64,000 nucleotides of DNA from Patescibacteria group bacterium (GTDB lineage: Bacteria > Patescibacteriota > UBA1384 > XYA2-FULL-43-10 > 1-14-0-10-43-13): positions 137,708 through 201,707 of the forward strand of contig JBAYHC010000001.1 of assembly GCA_041666325.1 (NCBI GenBank). The letters run 5' to 3'. A program made the translations under genes and the position numbers. Below the pieces are notes generated by a model. That model saw only the letters and a program-made list of their open reading frames with translations. It did not search any database and was not told where the DNA came from. Positions within the stretch are counted from its first letter, which is position 1, and each line of letters starts with the position of its first letter. Shown here in pieces: positions 10,835 through 60,791 of the stretch.

Positions 10835-11107
10835 TGCTCTCCTTTGAAAATTACCAAATTTAAGTTATTGAATGCTCCAGGACTCATTAACAAACCAAGA
10901 GTCCAGAAAATTTTTTGTTTCTGCCACCTAAAAACGCAAAAATTCCCCGGTTTGCCTGGGTAGCCGTTACTTCTCTATGAGAGTTGAGATCGTTTTCTTA
11001 ATCAATTGGCCAATTTATTTTAGTTTTTGAAAACATACTCAATTTAGCACAAAAAAGAATGTGTGTCAACACTGCATGTAATCAAATAACCACTTGTCAT
11101 AGGTATT

Positions 11108-11135
11108 CTATATGGAGGGCTGAAAGGGTGTCAAG
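11108..11135 (-). promoter_or_regulatory. Sigma70-like promoter (TTGACA-16-TATAGA) about 270 nt upstream of rpoB
   Basis: Read on the minus strand. A second TTGACA-17-TAAATT lies just downstream. Confidence 0.4.
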
Positions 11136-11139
11136 TGGA

Positions 11140-11170
11140 TAAAAAAGAAGCTCTGGGCAACACGCCCAGA
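11140..11170 (-). terminator. Rho-independent terminator ending the three-gene GC-rich operon
   Basis: CTCTGGGC-gtgtt-GCCCAGAG hairpin followed by CTTCTTTTTTATCC on the minus strand. Confidence 0.7.
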
Positions 11171-11192
11171 GCAAGATATCAAACGACTCGGA

Positions 11193-11576
11193 TTATCCAA
11201 ACTTCGGGCCAATAGTGGCTACACTGAGAGCTCGATTGCTAATACCCATCGAACGAAGCAATGCAGCGATTGTTTGCGGCTCAACCCTCACCTTGAGTTT
11301 GCCGCAGCGTAGCGAAACGCCGCGACCTTGCTCCGCCTCAACAATGTCGACACTGTCCTCGTTCCATCGAGGGTGGCACAGAATCTCTCGTGCACGAACA
11401 AGGGCAGACTCACGGGTCGGCCTGATAGCCGCAATCCCTGATTCAATGTCGTCAACTCGGCTTTCGACTCTCACTTCCCATATCTCACCGTCCACACCTC
11501 GGTCAATGGCCCAGTCGAATGCAAGCTTGATCAGTGCGTTGAGAAGATCAAGATCCGGCAGCTTGTTGTCCATCAC
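11193..11576 (-). CDS. Hypothetical protein (127 aa) on a GC-rich island, translationally coupled to the upstream beta-propeller gene (ATGA overlap)
   Basis: MMDNKLPDLDLLNALIKLAFDWAIDRGVDGEIWEVRV... No domain recognised. Confidence 0.5.
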   Translation of the reverse strand: MMDNKLPDLDLLNALIKLAFDWAIDRGVDGEIWEVRVESRVDDIESGIAAIRPTRESALVRAREILCHPRWNEDSVDIVEAEQGRGVSLRCGKLKVRVEPQTIAALLRSMGISNRALSVATIGPKFG

Positions 11577-12613
11577 AGCCCCCGCATCGTAACATGCTGA
11601 AGGAGGTTGCGCACAGGATAGAGGAAAACCTCTTTGGTGCCAAGCGACGCCACCGCCACATATTCACCGTCCGGCGAGCAAGCCAAACAGTGGGGCGGTG
11701 CCCCGGGCAGTTCGAGATAATCGAGCTGCTTCCAGGTGGCAGCATCAATGAAGGCCATAATGCCAGCCTTGATCACGTTGCCTACATTACTGTCTTCGTC
11801 CCCATTCGGCTTATAGCCCAAGCCGGTAGCCAGAACAAGCTTGTGGTGCGGCAGGGAACCAATATCAATGATTGAAGTCATACAGAGCTTCGCGCCATCG
11901 ACTTTGCCATATTTTCCCGTCGCCAGATCAACCACGACAACCTTCGGCTTCCCCGCCGGATTGGTCCAGATGGTCGCCAACCAAACATCGTTAATAAAGC
12001 CGAAAATATCCAGACAGTATTCCACAGATCCAACAAGCGGGCCGAGACTAAATGACCCAATACTCGAGAGCGATGAAGGAAAACGATAGACACTGATATC
12101 TGACCTATGGATTGAAGCAAGCAAACCGCTACTGCCAGGAGAGAAATGAGCAGATGATCCGGACAAGCAACCAAAAGTCAATCTTTTGGGCTTTCTGTCT
12201 GATATATCCCAAACCCCAAAACCTGGCCCGTGCGTATTGCAGACAGATATCAGTTTCCCATCACTCGACAAAGATACAGAATTGCCATTGGCCGGTTCCC
12301 CCATCTCAACAGCAACCTCATATTTACCGTCCGTGTCCCAGATTGAAACATGTCTATGATCCGCGTACCCAAGCGCTATGCGCTGACAATTTCCCATCGC
12401 AGCAACAGCGATATTGTGTACATCGGATTGCAAGACCCAACCGGAAGGCAAGACACACTCGAGCGACACACCGTTGGCAAAGCTCCACCTCTCGACATAT
12501 CCGCTCAAGCCAGCCTTACCTACTACGTACAAATTCCGCCCAAACCAAGTCAGGTCGCGAATGTTGGCACACTCTCCGCGGAGTGTAATGTACGGCACAT
12601 GCGATTTGGGCAT
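11573..12613 (-). CDS. WD40-like beta-propeller protein (GC-rich island); the alternative upstream start at 12685 is less likely
   Basis: WD-like repeats: VWDISDRKPKRL, CSPDGEYVAVASLGTKEVFLYPV. RBS GAAGGGGGA lies before the ATG at 12611-12613. Confidence 0.6.
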   Translation of the reverse strand: MPKSHVPYITLRGECANIRDLTWFGRNLYVVGKAGLSGYVERWSFANGVSLECVLPSGWVLQSDVHNIAVAAMGNCQRIALGYADHRHVSIWDTDGKYEVAVEMGEPANGNSVSLSSDGKLISVCNTHGPGFGVWDISDRKPKRLTFGCLSGSSAHFSPGSSGLLASIHRSDISVYRFPSSLSSIGSFSLGPLVGSVEYCLDIFGFINDVWLATIWTNPAGKPKVVVVDLATGKYGKVDGAKLCMTSIIDIGSLPHHKLVLATGLGYKPNGDEDSNVGNVIKAGIMAFIDAATWKQLDYLELPGAPPHCLACSPDGEYVAVASLGTKEVFLYPVRNLLQHVTMRGL

Positions 12614-12709
12614 GTAGCGCGTTCCCCCTTCTTTGGACTCAAGCAAAGCGGTTCTCTGCTCGGGATGAGACGGGTGTGTCACCACACCCGAGGAGAGAAA
12701 AACGAAAGA

Positions 12710-13717
12710 TCAATTATTAATCGGCCGAAAAAGCTGGTCAATCCGACCAACGTGAAGCAAGTTGTCTCTAAGAAGGGCAATGTGGCAGCCATCAGGCGAT
12801 AGAGCGGCCTGTTCTGCCTGAAATGAACTAGCTCGGCCGATGATGGTAGCGCCATAGCAGAGCCTAAGATCATCGACACCGTCCCATTCATCCTTCCTTG
12901 TGCCCCAGACAACCCAATTATCTCCATCTCCCGCTGTCATGGCTCCGTAATTACGCTCAAAGCCAGTGCTAACTACTCCCACAACCTCAATCTTATTCGC
13001 ATCAATCAGGTAAATGGGCGGGGTTTCGTTCCACCCGGCCGTGACAATCAATTGGTCCTTGTGAAATACGAGGGAGTCGGGTGTTCCGCCCTCAATCGAC
13101 CAGGGCGTGAGTTGTCGCGAGATCTGCGTGCTCAAGCCAGTTTTCAGATCAAAAAGATCAATTGGGCAATCATCGAAAACATAGGCCAGCAAACCCGATG
13201 GCGAGACAGCGCTCGCTCGCAGTGAACCATCCCCTCTCGCAACCCGGTGAATGCATTGTCCACTAGCGACATGGTAAACCTCAAGACCTGTGCGACTGGT
13301 ATAAATAAGGTTACCATCATGATAATCAATGGTAACACTCAGCACGCTTCCGGCAACGAGATCACTGGAAGGACTCGGTAAATTGCACGACTCAACCGCA
13401 TCACCGTCATGATAAGCGCGCAGGACAACGCGACCATCAAGCTGATGGATGGCCAAAACGTGCTGGCCCTCATATTTGCCCAGATATGTCCACGAACTGA
13501 AATGCTCTCCGTGATCCACGAGCCAAATAAGACTAATCTCCGGCCAGTTGAAAAAGACGTTTGCAATGTAGCGCGGCTTATCACTATAGTCTTCGCTGCC
13601 AACAATCATAGTCTTTGGGGTCGTCCAGCCGAGCTGAGAAACCCGACCGCGCCCTGACGGACGTACACAAAGCGTTACAAACTTTGATCCCACAAAGGCT
13701 GTCGGATCATTCGGCAT
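12710..13717 (-). CDS. WD40-like beta-propeller protein (GC-rich island)
   Basis: Repeats such as ALSPDGCHIALLRDNLLHV and SAVSPSGLLAYVFDD. A strong RBS AGAGGAGGG lies before the ATG at 13715-13717. The ORF-track start at 13759 reads through the RBS. Confidence 0.6.
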   Translation of the reverse strand: MPNDPTAFVGSKFVTLCVRPSGRGRVSQLGWTTPKTMIVGSEDYSDKPRYIANVFFNWPEISLIWLVDHGEHFSSWTYLGKYEGQHVLAIHQLDGRVVLRAYHDGDAVESCNLPSPSSDLVAGSVLSVTIDYHDGNLIYTSRTGLEVYHVASGQCIHRVARGDGSLRASAVSPSGLLAYVFDDCPIDLFDLKTGLSTQISRQLTPWSIEGGTPDSLVFHKDQLIVTAGWNETPPIYLIDANKIEVVGVVSTGFERNYGAMTAGDGDNWVVWGTRKDEWDGVDDLRLCYGATIIGRASSFQAEQAALSPDGCHIALLRDNLLHVGRIDQLFRPINN

Positions 13718-13893
13718 GTCAATGCCCTCCTCTTTCCGTGCCAGCTTTTGCCAGCACACAAAACCAGCCCCCTCTTGAGCTGGTCGCTGATGAGAACTAT
13801 ATCACTTAATTAGAAAAACGCAAGAATAGCAGACAAAGGTTAATCTGACGTGAAGCGGGGTACATCGCGCACAAACCACTTACGCCTGACGCG

Positions 13894-14007
13894 CTATTTG
13901 GCGATTGATTCAACTATGTCTGCCAACGTCTTGGACTGCTGCATGGTATAGAACGAAACAACTGCAAGCAGTACAAAGGAAACAATAATGATAACCTTTC
14001 TCTTCAC
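13894..14007 (-). CDS. Possible small secreted or membrane peptide (37 aa, GTG start)
   Basis: AGGAGG-N5-GTG, then (M)KRKVIIIVSFVLLAVVSFYTMQQSKTLADIVESIAK. Not in the ORF track because it is under 60 aa. Confidence 0.3.
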   Translation of the reverse strand: MKRKVIIIVSFVLLAVVSFYTMQQSKTLADIVESIAK

Positions 14008-14040
14008 ACGGGCCTCCTGCAAAAACTAGTATATCGTATT

Positions 14041-14084
14041 TCGCCCACCTGCATCACCTGGAGCGAAGCGACTGCGGGCAGGTA
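14041..14084. repeat. Copy A of a dispersed intergenic repeat family (core ...CCTGCATCRCCTGGAGCGAAGCGACTGCGGGCAGG...)
   Basis: A 44-nt near-identical core is shared with 15186-15240 and 31636-31692. Confidence 0.8.
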
Positions 14085-14134
14085 GTTCGCGTACCACATT
14101 GCAACCGAGCACCGATTCCGGCCCACAGCAAGAA

Positions 14135-15124
<990 letters not shown>

Positions 15125-15185
15125 TTATCAGGCGAAATACTAAAGTTAAAATCTCACTCCCATGAGCTGTCTCTTGCAATTAGTC

Positions 15186-15240
15186 CTTACGCCCGCCTGC
15201 ATCGCCTGGAGCGAAGCGACTGCGGGCAGGCTTTAAGCCT
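15186..15240. repeat. Copy B of the dispersed repeat (CTTACGCCCGCCTGCATCGCCTGGAGCGAAGCGACTGCGGGCAGGCTTTAAGCCTTA)
   Basis: Identical to copy C over about 50 nt. It is flanked by short CCTTA(C/A)GCC direct repeats. Confidence 0.85.
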
Positions 15241-15258
15241 TACTACTGATGCCTACGC

Positions 15259-19045: not shown

Positions 19046-19657
19046 TTATTCGCCTGCCTGGGAAATATTGTTTTTCGGTATCTCTAACCGAAAGAGCTCT
19101 TGGTGAACCGTGGACCTAACTCCCGGCCCTATTCCATAAATGGAGATGTGGTCAATTGGAAAGTGCCATGAAATGTCTGACAGCTTGTGCTCTATTGATT
19201 TCAGACGCAGTTTCAAGGCTGATCTTGACCTGTAACGATAGGCGCGCGCAAGAGTGAGATGCGGTCGAAAATGCATTTGCTTTTTGACGCAAAATTTTCG
19301 AAGGGGCTGCTGAATACTATTGTAGAACTTCTCTATTTCAGGAGAATAAAAAACTTTGAAAAACAGTACTCTTGGATCGTGGCCACCGAACACCCCAACC
19401 TGATTCACCGTCATATGTGTGCCGACCATCAGGGGCAGAAATTGACTGATCTCGAGAACGACCTGCTCCAAAGCTGTGAGCGTTTGGTCGCCAAGGTAGT
19501 AGATAGTGATATGCGGTGTCTCTGGCTTTACCGTGACAAGACCAATGTTCTCAAGACCAATACGCGAAAGCACGTCTTCAAACTTTTGCTGATCGTGAAA
19601 AGGCAATGGAATACCAATAAAGCAAGAAAGAAACCTTTCGCTTCTATACGATGTCAT
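19046..19657 (-). CDS. thpR: 2H phosphoesterase, 2'-5' RNA ligase LigT/ThpR family
   Basis: Two H-x-T-x motifs (HITIYYLG and HLTLAR) at the expected spacing. Confidence 0.7.
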   Translation of the reverse strand: MTSYRSERFLSCFIGIPLPFHDQQKFEDVLSRIGLENIGLVTVKPETPHITIYYLGDQTLTALEQVVLEISQFLPLMVGTHMTVNQVGVFGGHDPRVLFFKVFYSPEIEKFYNSIQQPLRKFCVKKQMHFRPHLTLARAYRYRSRSALKLRLKSIEHKLSDISWHFPIDHISIYGIGPGVRSTVHQELFRLEIPKNNISQAGE

Positions 19658-20169
19658 TCAGCATTGACCTCGATTCCACCGAACGCAGTCGATATCCTGA
19701 GGAGAACATATGGTTCTCCCTCCTTGTATGCATTAGTTGTATAGATCCTCTCACCAAAAGCAGCTGTGCTACCATCCGGCAACCGAATTGCGCCAAAAGC
19801 CCCGCTGGCATTGATCCTGATTGGCACATCCTGCCTAATCCGAACCTCGGCACCCCCAAAAACAACGTCGACCTGTATCTCTCTTTTATCTCCCGACAGA
19901 TTAATTTTCCTGAGATCAACCACCCCCTTGCCAAAAACAATTTCATATTTATTTTGGCGATCATTAGCTCTGATCTCTCCTTCTCCGAAGGTTATCTCAC
20001 TACCTTTGTTTCTCGTTCCAATCAGAATACTGCTTCCCCAAATTATCAGAAACAACGAGATCAAGATTCCGGCAACCGGGACATCAAAACCGAATATGTT
20101 TCTCATAACGAGAAGGATTCCGACCAAAATGAGCAAAACTCCAACAAAATTTCCCTTAATTAATGCCAT
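19654..20169 (-). CDS. LiaF-like (toastrack/DUF2154-like) membrane protein
   Basis: N-terminal TM helices, then repetitive beta-strand modules (EITFGEGEIRAN..., VDVVFGGAEVRIRQD...). Family assignment is from memory. Confidence 0.45.
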   Translation of the reverse strand: MALIKGNFVGVLLILVGILLVMRNIFGFDVPVAGILISLFLIIWGSSILIGTRNKGSEITFGEGEIRANDRQNKYEIVFGKGVVDLRKINLSGDKREIQVDVVFGGAEVRIRQDVPIRINASGAFGAIRLPDGSTAAFGERIYTTNAYKEGEPYVLLRISTAFGGIEVNAE

Positions 20170-31608: not shown

Positions 31609-31635
31609 TCCACCTCCAGATACTAGAAATACCGC

Positions 31636-31692
31636 CTTACGCCCGCCTGCATCGCCTGGAGCGAAGCGACTGCGGGCAGGCCTTACGCCTTA
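31636..31692. repeat. Copy C of the dispersed repeat (CTTACGCCCGCCTGCATCGCCTGGAGCGAAGCGACTGCGGGCAGGCCTTACGCCTTA)
   Basis: Identical to copy B except for 2 nt. The core is flanked by CCTTACGCC direct repeats. Confidence 0.85.
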
Positions 31693-31772: not shown

Positions 31773-32138
31773 CTAGTCGTTGTCCCGATCCCGGGGAGGG
31801 ATGGGGAAGTACGCGAGATGATTACCGAGCTCCGTTCTGAGATATCTCCCGACAGCGTCACTATAGAGATCACTCAGGGCAAAATCGATCGGCCCGGTCG
31901 GTACGGCAGAGACTGGGTCTTCTCTGCCGGTTGCTGTGCGCCAGAAGTCGAGGATCTCGCCTGGCGCTGCGTCGACGGGAAGACCCCAGTCTTCAACGTC
32001 GAAGCCATATTCGCCGACTGACATGCCAGTCGGCGACCTTTGGGCGGCTTGCACAAGAGTAGCCCGGAGGCACTCAAGATCCACTTGGCCACCTCCTTTC
32101 ACTGGAGAAGTGGATGCACTGCCTATGTATGTAATCAC
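31773..32138 (-). CDS. Hypothetical protein on a GC-rich island (about 60% GC); start uncertain
   Basis: MITYIGSASTSPVKGGGQVDLECLRATLV...GEYGFDVEDWGLPVD... No domain recognised and no clear SD. Confidence 0.4.
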   Translation of the reverse strand: MITYIGSASTSPVKGGGQVDLECLRATLVQAAQRSPTGMSVGEYGFDVEDWGLPVDAAPGEILDFWRTATGREDPVSAVPTGPIDFALSDLYSDAVGRYLRTELGNHLAYFPIPPRDRDND

Positions 32139-32267: not shown

Positions 32268-35200
32268 TTATTGCTTTGTGGCAGGAACCTCTATCTCGGG
32301 ACCGTCCTTGGCCTGACTAAATTGATGCCTCTGCTTAATATATTCATCTTCCGTTGATACTTCGACACGCTGACTTGACGAAGAAGCGCTCGGGACTATT
32401 TGGGACTGAGACTGATCTTGAGCACTCTCGGGATCATATGTTTCTACTCGGCCCGGAGTAGTCGGAGTGCTCTGACCGGAAGTCGCAGCACCAGTCGTCT
32501 CCTCCCATGTGCGCGAAGGGCGAACAAAAGATTCCGGCTGCTGATCAGCTATAGTCGGTGTTGGTATGGCGCCCGCCCCATCTTCACCCTCATCTGAAGT
32601 AGTCACCGTGACGTTGCCAGAACCACCCTCTGCCTCTAGTCCAGTCATCTCCTTCTCAAGCCGTTCTAGTCTCTCTGGACCGTTCGTTGCATAGTACAAC
32701 CTATCGTTTCTATCTCGCTGTGAGATTAGTTCTTCGTGCTCTTTTCTTAGATGTGTAAGCCGCTCTGCTCTTGACTCGGCATTTGTCTCGCCTTGCTGCT
32801 CAAAGCCAACTCTGTGTTTTTCCCTCTCGGTGTCCATCTCCTCTTGCACTCCAGGTTCTGGGTTAGACAACAAGTTAAGTCGTTTTTGTGCTGCTTCCAA
32901 TATCTGACCGCTCTTGGCAGCTTCCAATTCTGCTTGCAACACGCGCTGCCTTAGATTCTCAATGTAACCGGCACCACCTTCGTGCACCGCTGGCTCATCC
33001 GGGTGGCTGCTGGCCCAATCTAATTGCTCCCTGGCCCGAAGAAGTGACTCATCTGCTCTGTCCTTTAGTCCTTGTGCATCTGCAAGAGCGCTGGCAGCCT
33101 CAATTGCCTGCGGTGACTCTGGCGGTGTTATGAGATCATGTTCTTCGACTGCTGTCGCCGGTGTCTCAAGCCTTGACTTATCCAACTCTGACAAACGTTG
33201 ATCATACCAGCCAGCGTTGCTTCGACCAGTGATAAATTCCCAGGCCCGTCTCCAACTTGGCTGATTGTTCTCATGAATCAGCTTGTCAATTTCTATTGGT
33301 GACTGATGATTGATTTCTACGTTTACCCACCTCAAAACCGGATGACCAGGAGCTGTAGAGTGAACAGGAAACATGAGGTGTCTATTGTCGCCATCTGCAA
33401 CAACCCTAATCTCATTCACTCCTGTTCGATCAGCATTATCCATGCGAAGCAGCATATTGCCAACGATATCGCTCAGGTATTTGCTGTTTTGGCCAGCTTC
33501 TCCTCGCATGAGGGCGCCGAGGGCATCTTTACTGATAACAGTTCCACTACTGTAACTCTCGGGTACGGGAGCTGACCCTGAATGATTAGACTCAAGCCAC
33601 TTTAGATATTCGTCCAACTTCGTGGCAGGAAGGAATTCTAGTTTGGTTTTTTCGCTAAAACTTTCAACAGTAATACTTGGTTGCGCCTCTGTCGCTTCGT
33701 TGGCACCCAGTGCGTGGCCATCACCAACTTCTGGCGCCGAGGCCAATTTGACAGGATGCTCCTGTTCATCAACCTCAACTCGAGATCTGTGAGTGTGATG
33801 TGATTCTACCCCACCAGTCCTTGGCGCAAATGGTTTGTCGTCATCTGGCATATACTTAGGCAACTCGGCCATAACCTCTTTCATATCCTGGCCAGGAGTA
33901 ATGTTGCCCGGCATCTCCTTTGCGGTAGCTGCAATCAAAGACTCATCTCTGGAATCAAAATAGCCGCTTTCCATCAATTTTTCTTTTTCTGCTCGGATAG
34001 CAGCAAAATAGTGATTGGTGGTAGGATATGCTTCTGGATTGGCTTTTCTGTGAGTGTCTACGATCTCCTGAGCAAGTCGCCTGGCAGCGCCGGCCCCTGG
34101 TTCATGGAGCACTCCCTCAACCTTCTCCCTCAAATGCAGTACGTCTGTTTTATCTGTGTCACCTGGCACTCCAGATCCATGTGTATCAGGCGCTGAACCA
34201 TGAACAACATCTTTGTTTTCACCCGGATCAGACGGAACAACACCTGCAGGAGCCTCGCCATCAACGTCAACCTCGACCTTATTGCCCGGCTCGGCAATAT
34301 CCTGACTTGGTTGAGGAGAAACCTCTGTAACACGATGGGCAGCGCCTGCTGCTGCGGCTTTCTCCATGCCCAGAAGATCTCTGCCCATGTCAACGTCATA
34401 GCCCAAGAGCTTCTTTCCTAGCAGGAAGGCGATACGGAGGGCAACAACTGTTGCGACACCCTTGCCACCACCAACCAGCGCACTCTTCTTGCGCTCTGTT
34501 TTGAATTGTTCTTGAACCTCGGCCACCTTGCCGAAATCTGTCTCTACATTAAACCTTTTAGCAGGATCAGTGTCGGTGCTGCGCCTAACCATTTCACGCC
34601 TTGCAGCTTCAATAATAGCTGAATGATCAGATGCCAACTTAGAGGTCTCTCGTGTCGAGCGAAGCGCTCCGAGTCCGAGCTGAATAACACCATTGACTGC
34701 CAAGCCGGCAGCGCCAAGACCTGCAACCTTGAGACCAAGAACACCCAGCCCGACAGAGACACCAATTTTGCCCCACCAGGGCATCTTACTGAAGTTATCA
34801 CGTAATTTGTCGAATCCTCTGACGACACCTTTTCTCTTCCCCATGTACTTCTTGTAGTCTTCTTGCTCTTTCCGCAGAAGAGAGGAATCGATTTTCAAAC
34901 CTTTGGCAGTAGAGATGGCCTCGAGTCGTGCGTATACCTCAACAACCTTCTCCTTTGGCATCTCCTTCATTTTGGCCGAGACTTTTCTCGCATCCCAATT
35001 GCCATCCTTGTCCTTGCAATCACCAAAATCGACTGTTAGCGCTGCTTCTTGTCGCTTCATCCAGCCGGCATCAACCGCTGTAGCACCGCCCAGAAAGCTA
35101 GTCATAAGCCTGACACCATTTGCCAATAATCTGCCGCCGGGGATTGCGGCCATACCAACCGTCAGAACACCGGAGACCGTTCTTGCCATGTGATTTCTCT

Positions 35201-35792
35201 GGTAAAACTGCCAAAATCGGGCAAGAGGCCCTCTGTTTTCGATTTCTTTATTAATGACCTCTTGATGTTTCTTGAATTTATCATCGAGCGACCTCTCGAC
35301 GGCCTTGCGCTTCAACTCAAGCTCTTTCTGCTTACGATCCTCCTCTGCCTTGCGTCGCTCGACCTCTTCTCTCGTACGTTTTGCTTCCTCGCTCTCACCC
35401 TGTTGGTCATGTCTCTCACCGTCTGGCGTTCTATCCTGTGCAACATCAGGTGACACTGGCTGGCGCACAGGAGGTTCTACAGTGGCTTCAGGAGAAGCTT
35501 TGCCCGCCTCGTCGTTATTTAGGTCAGGGGCAGTAACACTTGCAGGCACCTCATCATCACCGGGACCTCCGATCACATCGTCTGGCATTCCGAGTGGCCC
35601 AACAGGAGGAATCTCCTCGTTGTTATCCGTAGTAGTATTTCTATCTTGGCCAGCATCAATGTTAGCGACTGCGCCAAACCTTCTATCGTCATCATTAGCA
35701 CCACCAGCAACACTCTCGGGCATACCCAACGGTCCACTCTGAAAAGCCCGCTTAATATCATCTGGCGTTAATCCGCCTTGATTTTCTGACAT
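32268..35792 (-). CDS. Very large (1174 aa) multi-TM glycine-zipper protein of unknown function
   Basis: Acidic disordered N-terminus with duplicated GPLGMP(E/D)xV(A/I)GG motif, then a coiled-coil region (EEAKRTREEVERRKAEEDRKQKELELKRK). Three Gly-zipper hydrophobic segments follow (e.g. WWGKIGVSVGLGVLGLKVAGLGAAGLAVNGVIQLGLGAL). The ~700-aa hydrophilic C-terminal region ends in Ser/Thr/Gln-rich sequence. Confidence 0.8.
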   Translation of the reverse strand: MSENQGGLTPDDIKRAFQSGPLGMPESVAGGANDDDRRFGAVANIDAGQDRNTTTDNNEEIPPVGPLGMPDDVIGGPGDDEVPASVTAPDLNNDEAGKASPEATVEPPVRQPVSPDVAQDRTPDGERHDQQGESEEAKRTREEVERRKAEEDRKQKELELKRKAVERSLDDKFKKHQEVINKEIENRGPLARFWQFYQRNHMARTVSGVLTVGMAAIPGGRLLANGVRLMTSFLGGATAVDAGWMKRQEAALTVDFGDCKDKDGNWDARKVSAKMKEMPKEKVVEVYARLEAISTAKGLKIDSSLLRKEQEDYKKYMGKRKGVVRGFDKLRDNFSKMPWWGKIGVSVGLGVLGLKVAGLGAAGLAVNGVIQLGLGALRSTRETSKLASDHSAIIEAARREMVRRSTDTDPAKRFNVETDFGKVAEVQEQFKTERKKSALVGGGKGVATVVALRIAFLLGKKLLGYDVDMGRDLLGMEKAAAAGAAHRVTEVSPQPSQDIAEPGNKVEVDVDGEAPAGVVPSDPGENKDVVHGSAPDTHGSGVPGDTDKTDVLHLREKVEGVLHEPGAGAARRLAQEIVDTHRKANPEAYPTTNHYFAAIRAEKEKLMESGYFDSRDESLIAATAKEMPGNITPGQDMKEVMAELPKYMPDDDKPFAPRTGGVESHHTHRSRVEVDEQEHPVKLASAPEVGDGHALGANEATEAQPSITVESFSEKTKLEFLPATKLDEYLKWLESNHSGSAPVPESYSSGTVISKDALGALMRGEAGQNSKYLSDIVGNMLLRMDNADRTGVNEIRVVADGDNRHLMFPVHSTAPGHPVLRWVNVEINHQSPIEIDKLIHENNQPSWRRAWEFITGRSNAGWYDQRLSELDKSRLETPATAVEEHDLITPPESPQAIEAASALADAQGLKDRADESLLRAREQLDWASSHPDEPAVHEGGAGYIENLRQRVLQAELEAAKSGQILEAAQKRLNLLSNPEPGVQEEMDTEREKHRVGFEQQGETNAESRAERLTHLRKEHEELISQRDRNDRLYYATNGPERLERLEKEMTGLEAEGGSGNVTVTTSDEGEDGAGAIPTPTIADQQPESFVRPSRTWEETTGAATSGQSTPTTPGRVETYDPESAQDQSQSQIVPSASSSSQRVEVSTEDEYIKQRHQFSQAKDGPEIEVPATKQ

Positions 35793-40541: not shown

Positions 40542-41261
40542 TCAAGCGATTGTCATGATCCAGATGTACCAAATGAGATATCCGTCCAAGAGAGCGTAAG
40601 TATGCACCAGTCTTCCTTTAATCATTGCCGTTACCGCCCCCATGATTGCAGACGCTGCCTGGTTGTCCCACGGTAGGACAACTCCGGATTGTTGCAACCG
40701 CCACTGCCGATCTTGGAGAGGTAATTCTTCTAACCGTTCTTTGATAGCATCTGGGTCAAATGTATCTACACAAACCCGAAAGACACGGCGATGCGACCCA
40801 CCGATAATAGTACTGGCATTCTCTTCTGCCTCCGGCGAAATACCGCTGAAGTCAAGAACGATTTCCGTCACCATGTCGTCAGCAGTAACGATCTGCGGAT
40901 GCTCAGCCGGGAAATAACCCAAAGTCGAGTTGCCAACTTCCATCCCCAGCTCCTGGCCATAAATCAGGTTCCCAATCACGGGAAAAGTCCGGATCCCCCG
41001 GCCAAGCCCAAACTTCCGTATTGCTTTAGCTAGCATCCCCTCCCAAGGGGCGCCCCAAGGCATCAGAATGTCCTTGCGCGACTTCTCCCACTCCGCCCGA
41101 TCAAATCCTAGCAAATCAAGGAAAGCATCAGGGCTATCGATTGTGTCGGGCACAACCCGATCAATGATCAGTGAGTTTGGCCCGCCCGAATAGCCGATGA
41201 ATCGCCTCACTGCCGCAACATTCACTCCGACCGAACCAGCAAGGTTCAAACACACATTCAT
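40542..41261 (-). CDS. Hypothetical protein (239 aa)
   Basis: No domain recognised. The hydrophobic C-terminus (YLIWYIWIMTIA) may be leader read-through; the start is uncertain. Confidence 0.45.
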   Translation of the reverse strand: MNVCLNLAGSVGVNVAAVRRFIGYSGGPNSLIIDRVVPDTIDSPDAFLDLLGFDRAEWEKSRKDILMPWGAPWEGMLAKAIRKFGLGRGIRTFPVIGNLIYGQELGMEVGNSTLGYFPAEHPQIVTADDMVTEIVLDFSGISPEAEENASTIIGGSHRRVFRVCVDTFDPDAIKERLEELPLQDRQWRLQQSGVVLPWDNQAASAIMGAVTAMIKGRLVHTYALLDGYLIWYIWIMTIA

Positions 41262-41631: not shown

Positions 41632-43188
41632 TCAGGCCGCGGCGCCGGCGGGCTCGCCGCGCTGCTTGCGATTGCGGCCGTTGGCGCTCGGCTTGGCGAT
41701 GCCCTCGAGGAGCTCCTTGTCCGCGGGGGACAGGATGTCCCCGATTGTGGCGAGCTTGTCGTCCCCGGCTACCAACCGCACCGTCGGGCCGTCGTCGCCC
41801 TGCTGCACCTCGTCGATGGGCTCGGTGTCGCTGGGCCCGGCCTCTTCGGTGAGGCGGGCTTCTTCGGCGACACGCCGCCTGGCGGCACCGCGGCCGCCGA
41901 TCGGCTTCTCGCGCTCGGCCTCGGTCTTGCGGTCCTTGCCTTTGCCGCTGCCCTTGTCAGGTGCGGACTGAGGCTCGGACGCTGGTGCCGTGGCCGGTGC
42001 TGCGGTCTTCTCTCCCCGGATCTGGGCCAGCAGGCGCTCGCGCCGGGCATCGGCCTCCTGCTTCTGGGCACGGAGGGCCTCGGCAGCAGCTTTGTCGGCC
42101 TCCTCTTTGGCCTGGAGACGCGCTCCGATGGTGCGGCCGGCGGCTTCGCCCTCGCGGTCGAGGGCAGCGAAGGTCTGCCAGGCCGGCTCAAGCGCCGGAA
42201 CGACCTCGGTGAAGGCGCCGTCACTGAAGGCGTCGCGCCCGTTGCGCAGAGCGCCGACGATCGCACCCCACTCGCTGGAGTGGCGGCCGTCGAACGCCCC
42301 GGTCTCCTTGCGGCTGTCCAGCTCCCACTGCGTCTCCCAGATAGCGAGCTGGGCCCGGGCGAAGCTGACGACGTCCTCTTCGGGCACGTCATGGCACATG
42401 GCCACAACGCTGAGGGCCATCATAGTCGCCTCGCGGAGCTTGTCGGGGTCTTCGGCCTTGCGCGCCTCATCGAACAGATCCTGGGTTGCCTGCACGAGAT
42501 CACCCAGATCCTCCTCGCGGCCAAGCTCACGGACAGCATGGCGCGCGATGCCGAGGGCCTTGCGCGGCGCCCTCTCGGCCGGCGGCGGCGGGGTGTTGTC
42601 CCGCTCCTGCCGCTGCTCGCGCACTGGCTGACGCTGCTCGGCCACGATCCGGCCAGTCGGCTCCTCCACCATAATGGTCGGAGCCGTAACGTCCCCCGCC
42701 TTGCGGTAGGGGACGACGCGCGCGGCCTTGCGGGCGCTGCGCACCTCGTCCAGAACCTCGCGAGCCTGGCGCAGAGCCTCGTATCCGGCCCTGTCGTCAC
42801 CATTGCGGTCTGCCCTGCGGGCGGCGCCGATGGCGCTGGCGATCAGGCCGAAATTCCGGTTCCGCTTCTCTTCCCAGCCGGGGAAGGCCCCGGCGGCCTT
42901 GCCCTCGTCGAAGTCTGCCTGGGTGGCCTCGATGGCCACGCCAAGCGCGGAGCGGCGGACGTCGGGTACGTCGGGGCCGCGATACGATCGCGGCTCGTAG
43001 TCCCGACCCTGCGGTTCCTCTTCGCCCTCGATGGCGACGAGGAACTGAGTCAGGGCCCCCATCACTTTCGATACGCGGCCGCTCCGCGTGCGGACCGGCT
43101 CAGCCGAACGATAGTCATCACGCCGGGGCTCCTGCCCCTGGCGTCCTCGCGGTGCAAACGGATCGAACCTGTTGTCGTTACCCATTGA
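41632..43188 (-). CDS. Hypothetical protein (about 518 aa) on a roughly 70% GC island; Glu/Asp/Arg/Ala-rich, no recognised domain
   Basis: Composition on the minus strand (E, D, K, R, A balanced) is protein-like. The fully overlapping plus-strand ORF is L/G/A/R-rich, as expected for an antisense artefact. GGAGG lies 9 nt upstream of the ATG at 43186-43188. The ORF-track start at 43521 extends into AT-rich leader. Confidence 0.55.
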   Translation of the reverse strand, partial: SMGNDNRFDPFAPRGRQGQEPRRDDYRSAEPVRTRSGRVSKVMGALTQFLVAIEGEEEPQGRDYEPRSYRGPDVPDVRRSALGVAIEATQADFDEGKAAGAFPGWEEKRNRNFGLIASAIGAARRADRNGDDRAGYEALRQAREVLDEVRSARKAARVVPYRKAGDVTAPTIMVEEPTGRIVAEQRQPVREQRQERDNTPPPPAERAPRKALGIARHAVRELGREEDLGDLVQATQDLFDEARKAEDPDKLREATMMALSVVAMCHDVPEEDVVSFARAQLAIWETQWELDSRKETGAFDGRHSSEWGAIVGALRNGRDAFSDGAFTEVVPALEPAWQTFAALDREGEAAGRTIGARLQAKEEADKAAAEALRAQKQEADARRERLLAQIRGEKTAAPATAPASEPQSAPDKGSGKGKDRKTEAEREKPIGGRGAARRRVAEEARLTEEAGPSDTEPIDEVQQGDDGPTVRLVAGDDKLATIGDILSPADKELLEGIAKPSANGRNRKQRGEPAGAAA

Positions 43189-43583
43189 ACACAAACCTCC
43201 ACTCCCCTGCCCGACCAAACGGGCATTGCCGGGGAGCTGACCGAAAGTGCCAGCCGTCACCATTGAAGCGGCTAGACTGGCGGGTGTAATGAAAACTTTG
43301 AAAGTGAACTCTTCGGCAAGCCGGCGAAAATCATGCCGGTCGCGAACAAAGTCACTCACTAAAGTTGCTGCTATATTAGCATATTTCCACGTCTCTGTCA
43401 AGACCCATGGCCGTGAATCGAGACGAATCCAGTTAATATCGCCTGTATCGCTAAATATTATGCTGGATATGCACGATCGACGATATCTAGCATAAGACCA
43501 ATTGATAGTACGCAAAAACATGCAAGCATTAAAATGCTTACCGCTGATCAGGTAGTATTATCGCAAAAAAAAGAAATGGGTTA

Positions 43584-48057: not shown

Positions 48058-49383
48058 TTAATCTCTAAATGTCAACTCTGTACGATAGCCTCTTTTGAAA
48101 TCTTCATAGCTCATTTCTTTTTTGCCTTCGGGCTTGACTACATCAATGACCAGTCCAGCTGCTTCAGCCATGTGAGCAGACAGTATTTGCACTCTTTTGT
48201 CCTTAACTATGGTATAGACCTTGGGCCAATCATGGAACGCCCTGATCATCCTCTCAACATCTCGAGCCGAAGTATTGGCATTGACACAACCGTCATCCTT
48301 CTTGATCATCTTGGTATATGTAGCTTTCTTTTCGTTCTGCATGGTCGGCTTAAGCTCGCCGGCAATATAGTATGGCAACGAATCAAGGAGTAATGTCGCG
48401 CCTATATCGGAAAGATAGTCCTTAAGAATCGTTGACGTTTCACCACCCGATAGCTCGACTGCAACTTGGGAGATGATATCGCCCGCATCCAGTTCTTCGC
48501 TTGCCAGCATTAGTGATACCCCTGCCAATTTATCACCATTCAAAATTGTATACTGCACTGGGGCGGGCCCGCGATATCGGGGCAAAAGAGAGGGGTGAAT
48601 ATTAATAACTCCATATTTAGGCAAGCGCAGCAATTCAGGTGGAATTATCTGGCCAAAGTCAGCCATGATGATAATCTCCGGTTTCCATTTCCTGATTTCC
48701 TGGACAATGTTCCCTTCACGGATCTTCTCGGTGCGAATGATCGGCAAGTGTAAATTATGAGCAATCTCGAATATTGCGTTTGTTTCTCTTTCCTCGCCTC
48801 GAATATGAGCCTTGGCATCCCCGGTAACAACGCCGACAATATCGTATTGCTGATCAGTAATAAGCGACTGTAGGGCTGGGGCCCCAAGCGTTCCAGTGCC
48901 TATAAAAACAGTTCTAACTTCCTTAAGATGGTCAACGATCAATGTTGCGTTCAGGTGGTCTGTTTCGTGCTGTAGAACGCGAGCGTGAACACCTTCTACC
49001 TCAAGCGTGATATTCTTACCGTATCGATCCTGTCCTACAACTGTTGCTTTGTCAGGGCGTTTAACCAATATTTCCCTACCAGGAACAGACAGACACCCCT
49101 CAACCATCGCTCTCTGACGACTCGAGTTCTTAACAACTTTTGGATTGCAGACTACTGTGAGTGGAAAACCAGTCAATACAGAATCTTTCTCTGGGATAAA
49201 CTCGGCTACGAAAACGCTCTTCGAGACCCCGACTTGGGGTGCCGCCAAACCAACACCATCGTTGGCTCGCATAGTCTCAATCATATTGTCTATCAGCTGC
49301 TGAAGATCAAAATCAAAATCAGTCACAACCGCAGCTGGCTGGCGCAATATCGGATCGCCTTCTTTTTTGATCGGTAATATCAT
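48058..49383 (-). CDS. def-fmt: Fused peptide deformylase / methionyl-tRNA formyltransferase (def-fmt in a single 441-aa ORF)
   Basis: N-terminal Def motifs GVGLAAPQVG, EGCLSVPG and HETDHL. This is followed in frame by Fmt motifs VFIGTGTLGAPAL and HPSLLPRYRGPAPVQ. Confidence 0.85.
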   Translation of the reverse strand: MILPIKKEGDPILRQPAAVVTDFDFDLQQLIDNMIETMRANDGVGLAAPQVGVSKSVFVAEFIPEKDSVLTGFPLTVVCNPKVVKNSSRQRAMVEGCLSVPGREILVKRPDKATVVGQDRYGKNITLEVEGVHARVLQHETDHLNATLIVDHLKEVRTVFIGTGTLGAPALQSLITDQQYDIVGVVTGDAKAHIRGEERETNAIFEIAHNLHLPIIRTEKIREGNIVQEIRKWKPEIIIMADFGQIIPPELLRLPKYGVINIHPSLLPRYRGPAPVQYTILNGDKLAGVSLMLASEELDAGDIISQVAVELSGGETSTILKDYLSDIGATLLLDSLPYYIAGELKPTMQNEKKATYTKMIKKDDGCVNANTSARDVERMIRAFHDWPKVYTIVKDKRVQILSAHMAEAAGLVIDVVKPEGKKEMSYEDFKRGYRTELTFRD

Positions 49384-49444: not shown

Positions 49445-49485
49445 CACTACCCGCTGGCTCTCACAATATGGGTAGTGTTCGGACA
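49445..49485 (-). terminator. Rho-independent terminator overlapping the RT stop codon (CACTACCC...GGGTAGTG plus TTTTTTTG)
   Basis: Read on the minus strand. It isolates the RT from the downstream def-fmt gene. Confidence 0.7.
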
Positions 49486-50438
49486 TCTATCAAAACCGGA
49501 TGATCAACCGGATTTCGGGATAGCTTTCGCCCTGGTGATTCGGACTGAATCAGGAAGAAGCGCGCCCGGTACTGGTCGTAAAGGCTGATCAATTCTTTTT
49601 CGAGACGGCTTTGGGGTCTTCTTTTCCCCGTGAAGGCAAAGAAGGTACTCATTGAGCCGGAGATCACATTGTGTTTAGGGTGAGATTCCCCCAGCGCCTG
49701 CCGCAACATGCAACAGAGCTCTTTAACCTTCGAGCGCTTAAGAAAGGTCGTTCCATCAGGGTGAATACCAATACCATTAATGAATACGTCACCCTTCTTG
49801 AGATCTAACACCTGGCATTTGTGACAACTCAGTCGAAAACCCACTGAGCGAATGGCTGCTGCCAAAGTCGCTCTCTTTCTCCTACCAACAGGGAACCTGG
49901 AGGAGAAGAGCAAATCATCGGCGAATCGAGTGTAGTGAAGACGGTATTTCTGGCACAGCGTCCGGATAGCCGGGTCGAGATGAACCTTCAAATACAACTC
50001 AAACCAATAGTTTGAGGCAGGGGCCCCAACTACCAGTCCTCCATTTCTGTGCAGGCAATAACGCTGAAGAAAAGTCAAAACCTCTTCTTGCTTGCCCGTA
50101 TACTGCGGGTCAACATCACAAATAGTCTCTGCCAATTTTGTGCCGTCAATACTCTCAAAGGCGCTGGCGATGTCCATCGAGACATAGTAACGGTTCCCGA
50201 GACGAAGATGTGTTCGCAGCAGCGCTGGCGCCGATGACATCTTGACTGAACCGAAACGAACTGCCCAATACGGCCGCCGCCACAGTCTGCGAATGTACCT
50301 CTTGATCTCCGCATGAACTCGACGCATCGTATCATTCGGCTCACCGATCGTTCGCCATTTCTTTCGTCCACTGATCGGATTGACCGCCAGTTTACGAAAG
50401 AAGCGGAAGGTTGGTTCCTCCCGCTGTGTTTTCGGCAT
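49461..50438 (-). CDS. Stand-alone reverse transcriptase (325 aa; retron, DGR or DRT-like, with no maturase or other fused domain)
   Basis: RT motifs are present: KKWRTIGEPNDTMRRVHAEIKRYI (motif 1), YYVSMDIASAFESI (motif 2), GLVVGAPASNYWFELYL (motifs 3-4), RFADDLLF (the YxDD catalytic box) and VFINGIGI (motifs 6-7). Confidence 0.9.
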   Translation of the reverse strand: MPKTQREEPTFRFFRKLAVNPISGRKKWRTIGEPNDTMRRVHAEIKRYIRRLWRRPYWAVRFGSVKMSSAPALLRTHLRLGNRYYVSMDIASAFESIDGTKLAETICDVDPQYTGKQEEVLTFLQRYCLHRNGGLVVGAPASNYWFELYLKVHLDPAIRTLCQKYRLHYTRFADDLLFSSRFPVGRRKRATLAAAIRSVGFRLSCHKCQVLDLKKGDVFINGIGIHPDGTTFLKRSKVKELCCMLRQALGESHPKHNVISGSMSTFFAFTGKRRPQSRLEKELISLYDQYRARFFLIQSESPGRKLSRNPVDHPVLIDVRTLPIL

Positions 50439-60302: not shown

Positions 60303-60791
60303 CCCCCAAAGCAGACAATAAGCCGAGTTCTGTACCCGCCGCGAAGCGGCGGGACAAAAAAACTTTATGAACTAAAGAACGAAAGAACAGGTGGGAAATC
60401 AACTTTTTAACTATTAACGCCCTGGTTGTTCTTTGGTTTTTTAGTTTTTCGGTTCTTCGGTCCCGATGCTTCGCATCGGGGGATGGCAATCTATCTACGC
60501 GTGAAGACCTCGCATATCTTCCGAGCAGGAATAATGATATGTTCGGCCCACTTCACTTTCACCTAACGAGGCTTGCCACAGACGTACATCGCTGCACGAA
60601 CGCGTGTGCTCTTACCACACGATTTCACCCTTACCGGTCGTGCATAGCACGACTTAGGCGGTTTTTTTTCTGTTGCGCTTTTCTTAAACTTCACAGCCTA
60701 CTTACTCTCGTAAGCGTTATTGCTCTATGGTGCCCGGACTTTCCTCCATCCCGATAACTCGGGACAGTAGCCATCTAATCTACTTCGGGGG
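60303..60791 (-). ncRNA. rnpB: RNase P RNA (bacterial type; about 490 nt with an expanded central/3' region)
   Basis: The minus strand carries GGAGGAAAGTCCGGGCACCATAGAGCA (P4 5' strand), GCAACAGAAAAAAAACCGCC, GGTAAGGGTGAAA...GTGGTAAGAGCACAC and ACAGAACTCGGCTTAT (P4 3' strand). The P1 helix pairs CCCCCGAAGUAG at the 5' end with CUGCUUUGGGGG at the 3' end. The UUCG-capped stem CCCGCCGC-UUCG-GCGGCGGG sits just before the P4 3' strand. Confidence 0.85.

Follow-up and report, generated by a model that had tools for sequence, protein, structure and literature searches.

Bacterial proteins of the STAND/TIR/kinase-WD40 type, e.g. those combining nSTAND1 (PF20703) with WD40 repeats, are found in cyanobacteria, Desulfobacteraceae and actinobacteria, and are reportedly treated as 'conflict system' proteins in an eLife paper from 2020. 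Solved structures of bacterial WD40 proteins include the WD40 domain of PkwA from Thermomonospora curvata (PDB 5yzv) and a Nostoc punctiforme protein (PDB 2ymu). Within the CPR, our literature search for WD40 domains retrieved only the giant surface proteins of the predator Vampirococcus (PMC8080830).

Here we analyzed a window of 64,000 nucleotides from a Patescibacteria group bacterium, in which the interval between obg and rpoB contains three co-directional minus-strand ORFs (genes A, B and C) directly upstream of rpoB. We lean towards the view that these genes constitute a lineage-specific accessory operon in a variable obg/rpoB slot, encoding two diverged cytoplasmic WD40-type proteins and an orphan protein C, with a scaffold as the presumed role of the products.

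Organization of the obg-rpoB interval

The following features, numbered from the first letter of the window, were assigned to the interval and its borders:

10834-7454, minus strand: rpoB, the neighbor downstream of the block
11105..11134, minus strand: promoter-like site TTGACA-18-TAGAAT matching 11/12 positions, directly after the terminator (promoter scan)
11141..11172, minus strand: intrinsic terminator of the operon, GCTCTGGGC-GTG-TTGCCCAGAGC followed by TTCTTTTTT (terminator scan and sequence)
11193..11573, minus strand: gene C, 126 aa, or 127 aa from the GTG at 11576
11573..12613, minus strand: gene B, 346 aa from the ATG at 12613 (ORF list and sequence)
12710..13717, minus strand: gene A, 335 aa from the ATG at 13717 (ORF list and sequence)
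13796..13804, minus strand: candidate extended -10 element TGATATAGT (read by eye; consensus match only)
13894..14007, minus strand: possible 37-aa small membrane peptide VKRKVIIIVSFVLLAVVSFYTMQQSKTLADIVESIAK with the Shine-Dalgarno sequence GCAGGAGG (read and translated from the sequence)

The ORFs and the terminator scan agree with a previous sequence-only reading of this DNA, which had proposed a three-gene minus-strand unit with a coupled small ORF and its own terminator. The Shine-Dalgarno sequence of gene A, GAGGAGG, is found 7 nt ahead of the ATG, while the ribosome-binding site of gene B, located 9 nt upstream, reads GAAGGGGGA; strong AGGAGG sites had been claimed for both genes, which is correct for A but not for B. 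Alternative starts are the GTG at 13759 for A (349 aa) and, for B, GTG codons reaching 12685 (370 aa). Both genes end with TGA and share one reading frame, with a single TGA and 32 codons between them. The stop of B and the start of C overlap in GTGATG, and on the basis of this overlap gene C is predicted to be translationally coupled to B. An overlap with the small ORF had been anticipated as ATGA, but its sequence is GTGA or TGATG. The predicted sizes are ~37 kDa each for A and B and 14 kDa for C, which is acidic and soluble. The ORF for the putative 37-aa peptide lies in the additional DNA that separates obg from gene A. It was called by the gene callers in none of the three available assemblies, and a real small membrane peptide gene at this position is possible but uncertain.

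The terminator comprises a stem of 10 pairs (7 G-C; 11172-11150) with a loop of 3 nt, and together with the subsequent TTCTTTTTT it confirms the clean terminator that had been located at 11140-11170. The candidate extended -10 element lies ~80 nt upstream of the ATG of A and is absent from the promoter-scan list because its -35 is poor. The promoter-like site at 11105..11134 is probably rpoB's own promoter, marking the downstream edge of the insertion; in the nearest relative, L082, the obg-rpoB spacer has a TTGACA at the aligned position. With its own Shine-Dalgarno sequences and the candidate extended -10 promoter, the operon may be transcribed independently, while the strong terminator would insulate rpoB, which would keep its own promoter and remain undisturbed in its expression.

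The block occupies a variable slot in a conserved core-gene string

The clade comparison comprised three genomes, i.e. the window genome, L082 (rpoB 75.5% and obg 62% identical) and L002 (rpoB 62% identical). L082 shares the order gyrA-infB-cdaA-ybbR-LysM/CHAP-obg-rpoB-rpoC-rpsL-rpsG-...-fusA-tuf with the window, but its obg-rpoB gap measures 291 bp vs 3.3 kb in the window, which supports the presence of extra DNA in the core-gene string. Between the genes, L082 has diverged too far from the window for an alignment that would place the exact edges of the insertion. In L002, cdaA-ybbR-CHAP-...-obg-rpoB is kept, and the 3.3 kb between the last two genes hold an orphan, a methyltransferase fragment, a PaaX-like regulator and another orphan. 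This cargo has no relation to A, B or C, as tblastn returned no match. Since the gap in L082 is short and the slot in L002 is filled by unrelated genes, the block appears as lineage-specific cargo in a variable slot. Three assemblies obtained with different pipelines, one of them a 7.4-kb Logan contig spanning obg-A-B-C-rpoB, contain 100% identical DNA running contiguously from obg through the block into rpoB. Judged from these comparisons, the block is a real accessory insertion, species-specific and placed in an otherwise conserved core-gene string. Gain in the window genome is plausible, albeit with three clade genomes not strictly separable from loss in L082.

The block had been thought to take the place of rplJ-rplL. 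However, obg precedes rpoB in all three clade genomes, and because this includes the two nearest relatives, the expectation of rplJ-rplL at this position does not apply to the clade. In none of the Patescibacteria-labelled loci examined did the 10 kb upstream of rpoB contain an RplJ or RplL match, and tblastn with the E. coli proteins (E < 1) gave no match in the window or in Patescibacteria-labelled relatives. By gene order, the block is not a replacement of ribosomal protein genes.

Marks of a mobile element were looked for as well. The window contains no tRNA, and Pfam and gene annotation revealed no integrase, transposase or recombinase domain. Flanking repeats of the block are restricted to short ones at chance level, including a 13/14 direct repeat (10930-10943 and 13814-13827). 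A template/variable repeat pair of a DGR linking the reverse transcriptase of the window to the propellers was not found. This reverse transcriptase is of the retron type, and RNase P RNA is the only Rfam match in the window.

Genes A and B are predicted to encode highly diverged WD40-type proteins

Gene A has no PF00400 match and no Pfam family above threshold. However, phmmer detected similarity to the WD40 domain of PkwA (PDB 5yzv; E = 1.3e-6, residues 124-198), and weak matches to multi-WD40 proteins span residues of about 80-250. Gene B, which carries the NCBI name 'WD40 repeat domain-containing protein', matches PF00400 with 11.6 bits (E = 0.46; cut-off 27) and further Pfam beta-propeller families below their cut-offs (THOC3, 2e-6; EML, 5e-5). 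The Pfam check suggested earlier therefore yielded propeller families for B, but none reaching cut-offs; NCBIfam contained nothing significant for A and B. In an exhaustive phmmer search of 1.84 billion representatives, for which A, B and C were concatenated to one query, B obtained its best multi-WD40 match at E = 1.4e-13, and 209 WD40-array proteins matched at E <= 1e-3, mostly on B residues 65-175. An HMM of the WD40 unit scored the whole proteins at E = 1.3e-8 (B) and 0.0065 (A) and recognized four weak repeats in B. Thus, the WD40-like nature that had been read from the sequences of A and B is borne out, with 1.3e-6 for A vs PkwA and values down to 1.4e-13 for B.

The signature dipeptides of the GH...WD pattern are absent from most repeats: A has a single WD (position 278) and B has two (92 and 135), and the aligned repeats of A have YH or FD at the WD position. 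AF2, run on single sequences without alignment depth, gave an A+B model with a mean pLDDT of 38.5, in which residues 125-250 of A form three four-stranded blades (pLDDT 58-73). Foldseek with this low-confidence model retrieved nothing but propellers, as local matches with TM-scores of 0.13-0.40. The data suggest that A and B are highly diverged, soluble proteins of the WD40-type beta-propeller class, strongly degenerate and having lost most GH/WD residues. Their lengths of 335 and 346 aa fit seven blades, but as the repeats are degenerate to the point that every Pfam family stays below its cut-off, closure into seven blades is only assumed, from length and local similarity. The two genes show the extent of WD40 repeat erosion that is compatible with long intact ORFs.

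A further WD40 gene resides at 1318-2367 in the rpsG/fusA slot, whose content differs in L082. It encodes a canonical WD40 protein (PF00400, 1.5e-16; PDB 2ymu, 5e-35) and has an atypical GC content of 58.8%. The claim of three foreign propeller genes within 14 kb is right insofar as three WD40-like genes are present, but the composition of A and B is only mildly atypical. Because the composition of the 1318-2367 gene differs, it probably represents an event separate from the A/B block. A and B had also been described as paralogous-looking, but the best BLASTP E-value between them is 0.09 and the hhalign probability 0.5%. The three-way alignment that had been advised for A, B and the 1318-2367 protein likewise gave no paralogy, which was rejected for all pairs by BLASTP and hhalign.

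Homologues of the block are confined to generic WD40 arrays

No orthologues of A, B and C were found among about 15 billion proteins, word-indexed searches returning their own clusters only. The propellers could have been common core genes of this lineage; instead they are absent from the relatives and from these ~15 billion proteins. Gene C matched only itself in 5.8 billion clusters and 1.84 billion representatives and had no match in Pfam, NCBIfam, PADLOC, PHROGs and PDB. Its AF2 single-sequence model has a pLDDT of 48, and Foldseek found no significant match for it. By the outcome of these searches, gene C is a complete ORFan. Searches of A, B and C against NCBIfam, PADLOC and PHROGs yielded no meaningful result, and no match to the block was found in viral contigs (three scans) or by blastn against phages and plasmids.

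A and B find their best matches in generic bacterial STAND/TIR/kinase-WD40 arrays, with identities of 25-36% in stretches of about 100 residues and thus a similarity at repeat level only. These detectable relatives comprise 700-1900 aa and carry an N-terminal nSTAND1, TIR, kinase or AAA_35 domain followed by WD40 arrays, in which PF00400 matches about 9-10 repeat stretches. As such generic bacterial arrays are the best matches, the eukaryotic or actinobacterial donor that had been envisaged cannot be named. An NTPase (nSTAND/NACHT/AAA), effector or adaptor domain was found neither in A, B and C (Pfam, PADLOC) nor in their neighbors, and PADLOC and Pfam detected no hallmark of a defence system in the block. 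By domain content, A-B-C does not qualify as a STAND NTPase-WD40 conflict/defence system.

The composition of the block is only mildly atypical

A GC content of 58-62% had been ascribed to the block. The measured value is 51.9% over 11140-13800, with 51-54% for the single genes and no 300-nt window above 56%. Against a window median of 46.5%, the block ranks at the 95th percentile among windows of its size, and by dinucleotide signature at the 87th. The recommended comparison of GC3 with backbone genes gave 0.51-0.56 for A, B and C vs about 0.42-0.49, i.e. values that are raised, but only mildly atypical. The codon-usage fit of the three genes ranges from -1.14 to -1.19 and that of the backbone from -1.07 to -1.21, A being inside this range and B and C at its edge. 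The foreign composition of the block had been overstated. A and B both stop at TGA, a codon that is overrepresented as stop in the atypical, GC3-rich genes of the window (Fisher p = 0.004). With A inside the backbone range of codon usage and B and C no further out than its edge, a horizontal origin of the block is plausible but unproven.

Origin and role of the block

In the reading that we favor, A and B would be cytoplasmic, highly diverged WD40-type beta-propellers, and C would be produced in step with B. The WD40 part may have come by horizontal transfer from a multi-WD40 protein of bacteria, of the STAND/kinase-WD40 type, and then diverged fast; alternatively, it may have diverged beyond recognition in situ. 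The products would most likely act as a soluble, cytoplasmic scaffold for protein-protein interactions, with C as a putative bound partner of B. A species-specific accessory operon of this kind is ordinary for CPR genomes, which are rich in hypothetical proteins. The block would also provide a well-bounded example of gene gain in a reduced Patescibacteria genome, with cargo between the essential genes obg and rpoB.

We consider it unlikely that A and B are instead decaying halves of the tandem double-propeller region of a larger STAND/TIR/kinase-WD40 conflict-system gene, which lost its N-terminal NTPase/effector and was split by a nonsense TGA, leaving ORFs that are functionless or in the process of being lost. 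Such a relic would fit the heavily eroded WD40 signatures, the common frame of A and B with one TGA and 32 sense codons in between, and the fact that every detectable relative is a protein of 700-1900 aa with an N-terminal domain and a WD40 array. However, a shared frame with an open 32-codon spacer is expected by accident in roughly 1 of 10 cases, and the several alignments crossing the A/B junction of the concatenated query are expected anyway for repeat arrays. Moreover, both ORFs are intact for at least 335 codons and have their own Shine-Dalgarno sequences, a third gene is coupled to B, and a clean terminator closes the unit. Dead DNA is expected to disappear quickly from streamlined CPR genomes, which also argues against decay. 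An operon dating back to the last ancestor shared by the window genome and L082, evolving very fast and deleted in L082, is likewise improbable in our view: the close-to-native codon usage and the slot that is filled in L002 as well would suit it in a clade of three genomes, but tblastn found nothing of A, B and C in the L002 cargo, GC, GC3 and TGA stop usage depart from core genes, and no homologue exists elsewhere despite many Patescibacteria in the databases. The idea that the ORFs arose by chance, or that the block stems from a chimera made during assembly or from contaminant DNA in the MAG bin, deserves hardly any credence. Although the block is compositionally distinct and its proteins lack homologues, the same DNA is contiguous as obg-block-rpoB in each of the three assemblies, ORFs of 335-346 codons are not a chance product at 52% GC, and A and B exhibit significant WD40 similarity in the called frames.

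A relation to host interaction had been considered, implying that the propellers are exported or surface-exposed and bind host-cell molecules in episymbiosis. The WD40 domains in the giant surface proteins of Vampirococcus (PMC8080830) and the three WD40-like genes within 14 kb would be in line with this idea. However, A, B and C are small and have a single domain each, in contrast to the giant membrane proteins of Vampirococcus, and no secretion genes are nearby. The signal-peptide and secretion prediction that had been proposed was negative for all three proteins, which have no signal peptide, lipobox or transmembrane segment, and their highest 19-residue hydropathy is at most 1.27. Nothing thus points to host interaction, which we regard as very unlikely, and the block is not demonstrably host-directed. 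Little probability is also assigned to a broader scenario in which the fixed slots infB/cdaA, obg/rpoB and rpsG/fusA are repeatedly loaded with unrelated orphan cargo, two of them having independently taken up WD40-type propellers, and in which A-TGA-B might be produced as one double propeller of 713 aa by TGA read-through. The core genes of the window genome almost never use TGA as stop, which could hint at weakened TGA termination. If this scenario is true, CPR symbionts would repeatedly draw on WD40 scaffolds for lineage-specific innovation. Should the products prove to form a complex with a defined cellular target, they would be a further example of prokaryotic WD40 scaffolds that stand alone and work with a small partner of their own.

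Comparison with known systems

The locus shares the usual downstream order rpoB-rpoC-rpsL-rpsG-fusA-tuf with the classical rplKAJL-rpoBC arrangement of model bacteria, but differs in having obg rather than rplL before rpoB, a feature of the window clade. The 1318-2367 protein and its Nostoc punctiforme match 2ymu belong to the same fold class as A and B, and the 1318-2367 gene also occupies a variable slot. This protein, however, is well preserved, and its similarity to A and B is limited to one SPDG motif. Among solved structures, the PkwA WD40 domain of T. curvata is the best match of A and is matched by B at E = 0.0086. The likeness concerns the period of ~42 aa, the '...SPDG-llasgs-D-tvrlWD' pattern and a size suiting a seven-bladed propeller, whereas A and B keep only 1.5 to 4 recognizable repeats and have no attached kinase or other domain. 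The STAND/TIR/kinase-WD40 proteins are the sole relatives of A and B detectable among 1.84 billion representatives. The succession of A and B in a common frame is reminiscent of the tandem double propeller in these proteins, but in the obg-rpoB interval the two propellers are separate proteins of ~340 aa, accompanied by an extra coupled orphan gene.

A three-gene operon between obg and rpoB

Between obg (15115-14135) and rpoB (10834-7454) lie three minus-strand ORFs, subsequently designated A, B and C. The source is a CPR metagenome-assembled genome (687 kb contig), and NCBI lists the window proteins under MFA5926859-63 ('Patescibacteria group bacterium').

Features of the obg-rpoB region
14007-13894, minus: putative 37-aa membrane peptide between obg and A, possible, read by eye
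13804-13796, minus: candidate extended -10 element TGATATAGT 5' of A, read by eye
13717-12710, minus: gene A, ATG start, 335 aa
13759, minus: alternative GTG start of A, 349 aa
7 nt 5' of the ATG of A, minus: Shine-Dalgarno sequence GAGGAGG
12613-11573, minus: gene B, ATG start, 346 aa
9 nt 5' of the ATG of B, minus: upstream sequence GAAGGGGGA
out to 12685, minus: alternative GTG starts of B
11573-11193, minus: gene C, 126 aa
11172-11141, minus: clean intrinsic terminator, 10-pair stem (7 G-C), then TTCTTTTTT
11134-11105, minus: sigma-70-like promoter (11/12), immediately 3' of the terminator

The ATG start of C and the TGA stop of B have one A in common (GTGATG). The ORFs, this overlap and the 11172-11141 terminator bear out the sequence-only reading of the block (11140-13800) as a three-gene minus-strand operon with B/C coupling and its own terminator. 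The promoter at 11134-11105 can be used by rpoB.

The same reading had put the GC content of the block at 58-62%, but the measured value is 51.9% (single genes 51-54%, highest 300-nt window 56%). The median of 2.6-kb stretches in the window is 46.5%, and the block ranks at the 95th percentile of these for GC and at the 87th for dinucleotide signature. GC3 is raised as well, reaching 0.51 in A, 0.56 in B and 0.54 in C versus ~0.42-0.49 in backbone genes. The fit of synonymous codon usage to the backbone is -1.14 to -1.19 for the block genes and -1.07 to -1.21 for core genes. The block is thus mildly atypical in composition, not striking.

TGA stops are rare in the window (7 of 38 genes checked) and fall mainly on genes that are atypical, rich in GC3 or accessory; conserved core genes end almost exclusively with TAA or TAG. 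The genes concerned include A, B, a LiaF-like gene, ORFs 40542-41261 and 41632-43521 and a reverse transcriptase gene. TGA terminates five of nine genes with GC3 >0.5 versus two of the 29 others (Fisher p = 0.004).

The obg-rpoB spacer is a variable slot

Among GTDB species representatives no rpoB exceeded 62% identity, and a metagenome scan yielded the closest relative found, L082 (Ga0172380_10000187; rpoB 75.5% and obg 62% identical to the window). Its gene order, gyrA-infB-cdaA-ybbR-LysM/CHAP-obg-rpoB-rpoC-rpsL-rpsG-(one ORF)-fusA-tuf, is exactly that of the window, but the obg-rpoB gap measures 291 bp versus 3.3 kb. In L002, a more distant relative (rpoB 62% identical), cdaA-ybbR-CHAP-...-obg likewise lies 5' of rpoB, and the 3.3-kb slot holds genes unrelated to those of the window. 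Therefore, the gene ancestrally preceding rpoB in this clade is obg and not rplL, and the spacer is a variable slot. RplJ/RplL matches were absent within 10 kb upstream of rpoB in the Patescibacteria-labelled loci examined; the expectation of rplJ-rplL at this site, drawn from model bacteria, is thus inapplicable. Two further slots, infB/cdaA and rpsG/fusA, differ in content between the window and L082.

Contents of the variable slots
obg/rpoB, L002: orphan, methyltransferase fragment, PaaX-like regulator, opposite-strand orphan
infB/cdaA, window, 19046-20169, minus: LiaF-like and LigT/2'-5' RNA ligase-like genes, ATGA overlap
rpsG/fusA, window, 1318-2367, minus: canonical WD40 gene
rpsG/fusA, window, 1046-1276, minus: small membrane ORF
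rpsG/fusA, window, 799-1038, plus: DUF4342 protein

The LiaF-like and LigT-like genes are absent at the infB/cdaA position of L082, and the rpsG/fusA slot of L082 is filled by an opposite-strand ORF of 225 aa that is unrelated. The WD40 gene 1318-2367 has a GC content of 58.8%, and Nostoc 2ymu and PkwA are the solved structures closest to its product.

Similarity of A and B to WD40 propellers

Among 5.8 billion clusters, A, B and C each matched their own cluster only. An exhaustive phmmer search with concatenated A+B+C against 1.84 billion representatives returned strong E-values for the three self-matches only, and 209 weak matches (best 1.4e-13; identity 25-36%), which fall mainly on B 65-175, B 270-335 and A 80-250; none of the 209 touches C. 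Six of the weak matches were scanned with Pfam, and every one is a long WD40-array protein, three with an N-terminal nSTAND1 domain; TIR, protein kinase, AAA_35 or sigma-70 domains occur in individual matches according to source names or Pfam. The origins given for them comprise a Scytonema cyanobacterium, Desulfobacteraceae and metagenomes.

When compared with solved structures, A matched the WD40 domain of PkwA (5yzv, E = 1.3e-6), its repeats carrying YH or FD at the expected WD position, and B matched the same domain at E = 0.0086. In Pfam, B gave only sub-threshold beta-propeller matches (THOC3 2e-6, EML 5e-5, PF00400 0.46) and A none. An HMM of the WD40 unit built from the matches detected four weak repeats in B, two marginal ones in A and four clear ones in ORF 1318-2367. 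Both A and B end, as read from sequence, in a blade consisting of SPDG plus three strands, which may represent the usual last blade of a velcro-closed propeller.

AF2 was run on single sequences because no alignment was obtainable, and confidence was low (mean pLDDT 38.5 for A+B, 48 for C); three four-stranded blades appeared only in A 125-250 (pLDDT 58-73). Foldseek with this low-confidence A+B model gave 633 matches at E <= 1e-3 with low TM-scores, the best 50 of which are all beta-propellers, mostly WD40 proteins, while the C model gave nothing significant. C is an ORFan. Paralogy of A and B, suggested by the sequence-only reading, was not detectable (best BLASTP E = 0.09, hhalign probability 0.5%). 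Nor does either show likeness to the 1318-2367 propeller apart from one SPDG motif.

Other features of the window

A ~58-nt GC-rich imperfect palindrome occurs in three copies (14037-14094, 15185-15242, 31635-31692; 78-100% identity), each just 3' of a gene on the minus strand, namely obg, the LysM/CHAP gene and ORF 31773-32138, respectively. One of the copies marks the edge of the inserted block on its upstream side. Its 28-nt core, expected by chance 0 times, reads GCCTGCCCGCAGTCGCTTCGCTCCAGGCGATGCAGGCGGGC on the minus strand. The element has the look of a REP-like hairpin between genes; the loci of the relatives gave no copy.

The TGA-terminated ORF 41632-43521 (minus, 629 aa) beside uvrB deviates far more in composition than anything else in the window, with 66.6% GC and GC3 0.77 versus a genome of ~46% GC. 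Its Arg-, Ala-, Glu- and Asp-rich product has no Pfam or PADLOC match, and the adjoining ORF 40542-41261 (minus, 239 aa) is GC-rich and unassigned too. The reverse transcriptase (49461-50438, minus, 325 aa; PF00078, 1.6e-13) is flanked by a def-fmt fusion gene and an epimerase gene; its best PADLOC matches are retron-type enzymes of types I-B, III-A, VI and II-A (~1e-18), and the window yielded no template/variable repeat pair of DGR type. The fusion is a single 441-aa ORF (48058-49383, minus) joining peptide deformylase (residues 3-156) to methionyl-tRNA formyltransferase (157-408). ORF 32268-35792 (minus, 1174 aa), located amid annotated cell-envelope and glycosyltransferase genes, lacks Pfam and PADLOC matches. 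A class A RNase P RNA (60304-60786, minus; RF00010, 145 bits) is the sole Rfam family detected, and no tRNA genes occur across the 64 kb.

Origin and possible role of the block

The block is most likely a lineage-specific accessory operon in the obg-rpoB slot, independently transcribed and terminated. Its products would be two cytoplasmic propellers of WD40 type, both strongly diverged, and an orphan partner made by coupled translation. An artefact is excluded by significant WD40 similarity in the called frames and by three assemblies (JGI 3300037810, ENA ERZ27249449 and a 7.4-kb Logan contig from SRR6484324) whose DNA is 100% identical and continuous across obg, the three genes and into rpoB. 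Horizontal gain of a WD40 array of bacterial origin, which then diverged rapidly, would be the most economical explanation of where the block came from, because the block is absent from L082, its GC and GC3 are raised, A and B end in TGA as do other GC3-rich atypical genes, and the only relatives are large WD40 proteins from other phyla. Searches of the block against NCBIfam, PADLOC, PHROGs, viral contigs, phage records and plasmid records gave no matches, and mobile-element marks (tRNA, recombinase, convincing flanking repeat) were absent. The genes might instead be ancestral and deleted in L082, given that three genomes were compared, but the cargo of L002 is unrelated and the composition departs from that of core genes.

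Alternatively, the block might be the decaying relic of a double-propeller STAND-WD40 gene, since A and B share one frame, parted by a single TGA and 32 sense codons, and every relative carries a long WD40 array of many repeats, preceded by other domains at the N-terminus. However, neither ORF is broken, A and B each possess a Shine-Dalgarno sequence, the operon is neatly organised, and a shared frame with an open spacer would arise by accident with a chance of roughly 1 in 10. A role as exported factors in host interaction, the latter suggested by the sequence-only reading, is opposed by the lack of an N-terminal signal or hydrophobic segment in A, B and C (top 19-residue hydropathy <=1.27); the WD40 proteins reported from the surface of a CPR cell are membrane proteins of giant size (PMC8080830). 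The accessory operon may rather provide a soluble scaffold for protein-protein interactions in which C binds B, a role proposed from the general roles of WD40 propellers and the B/C coupling.

Taken together, the useful outcome is corrective: the ribosomal-operon premise is inapplicable, the GC anomaly is smaller than first stated, A and B are not paralogues, and the insertion is real and bounded. Two stand-alone degenerate propellers with a coupled small gene between obg and rpoB have no described counterpart; the arrangement carries no feature indicating a new mechanism, and A and B add two highly divergent proteins to a fold class that is already known.
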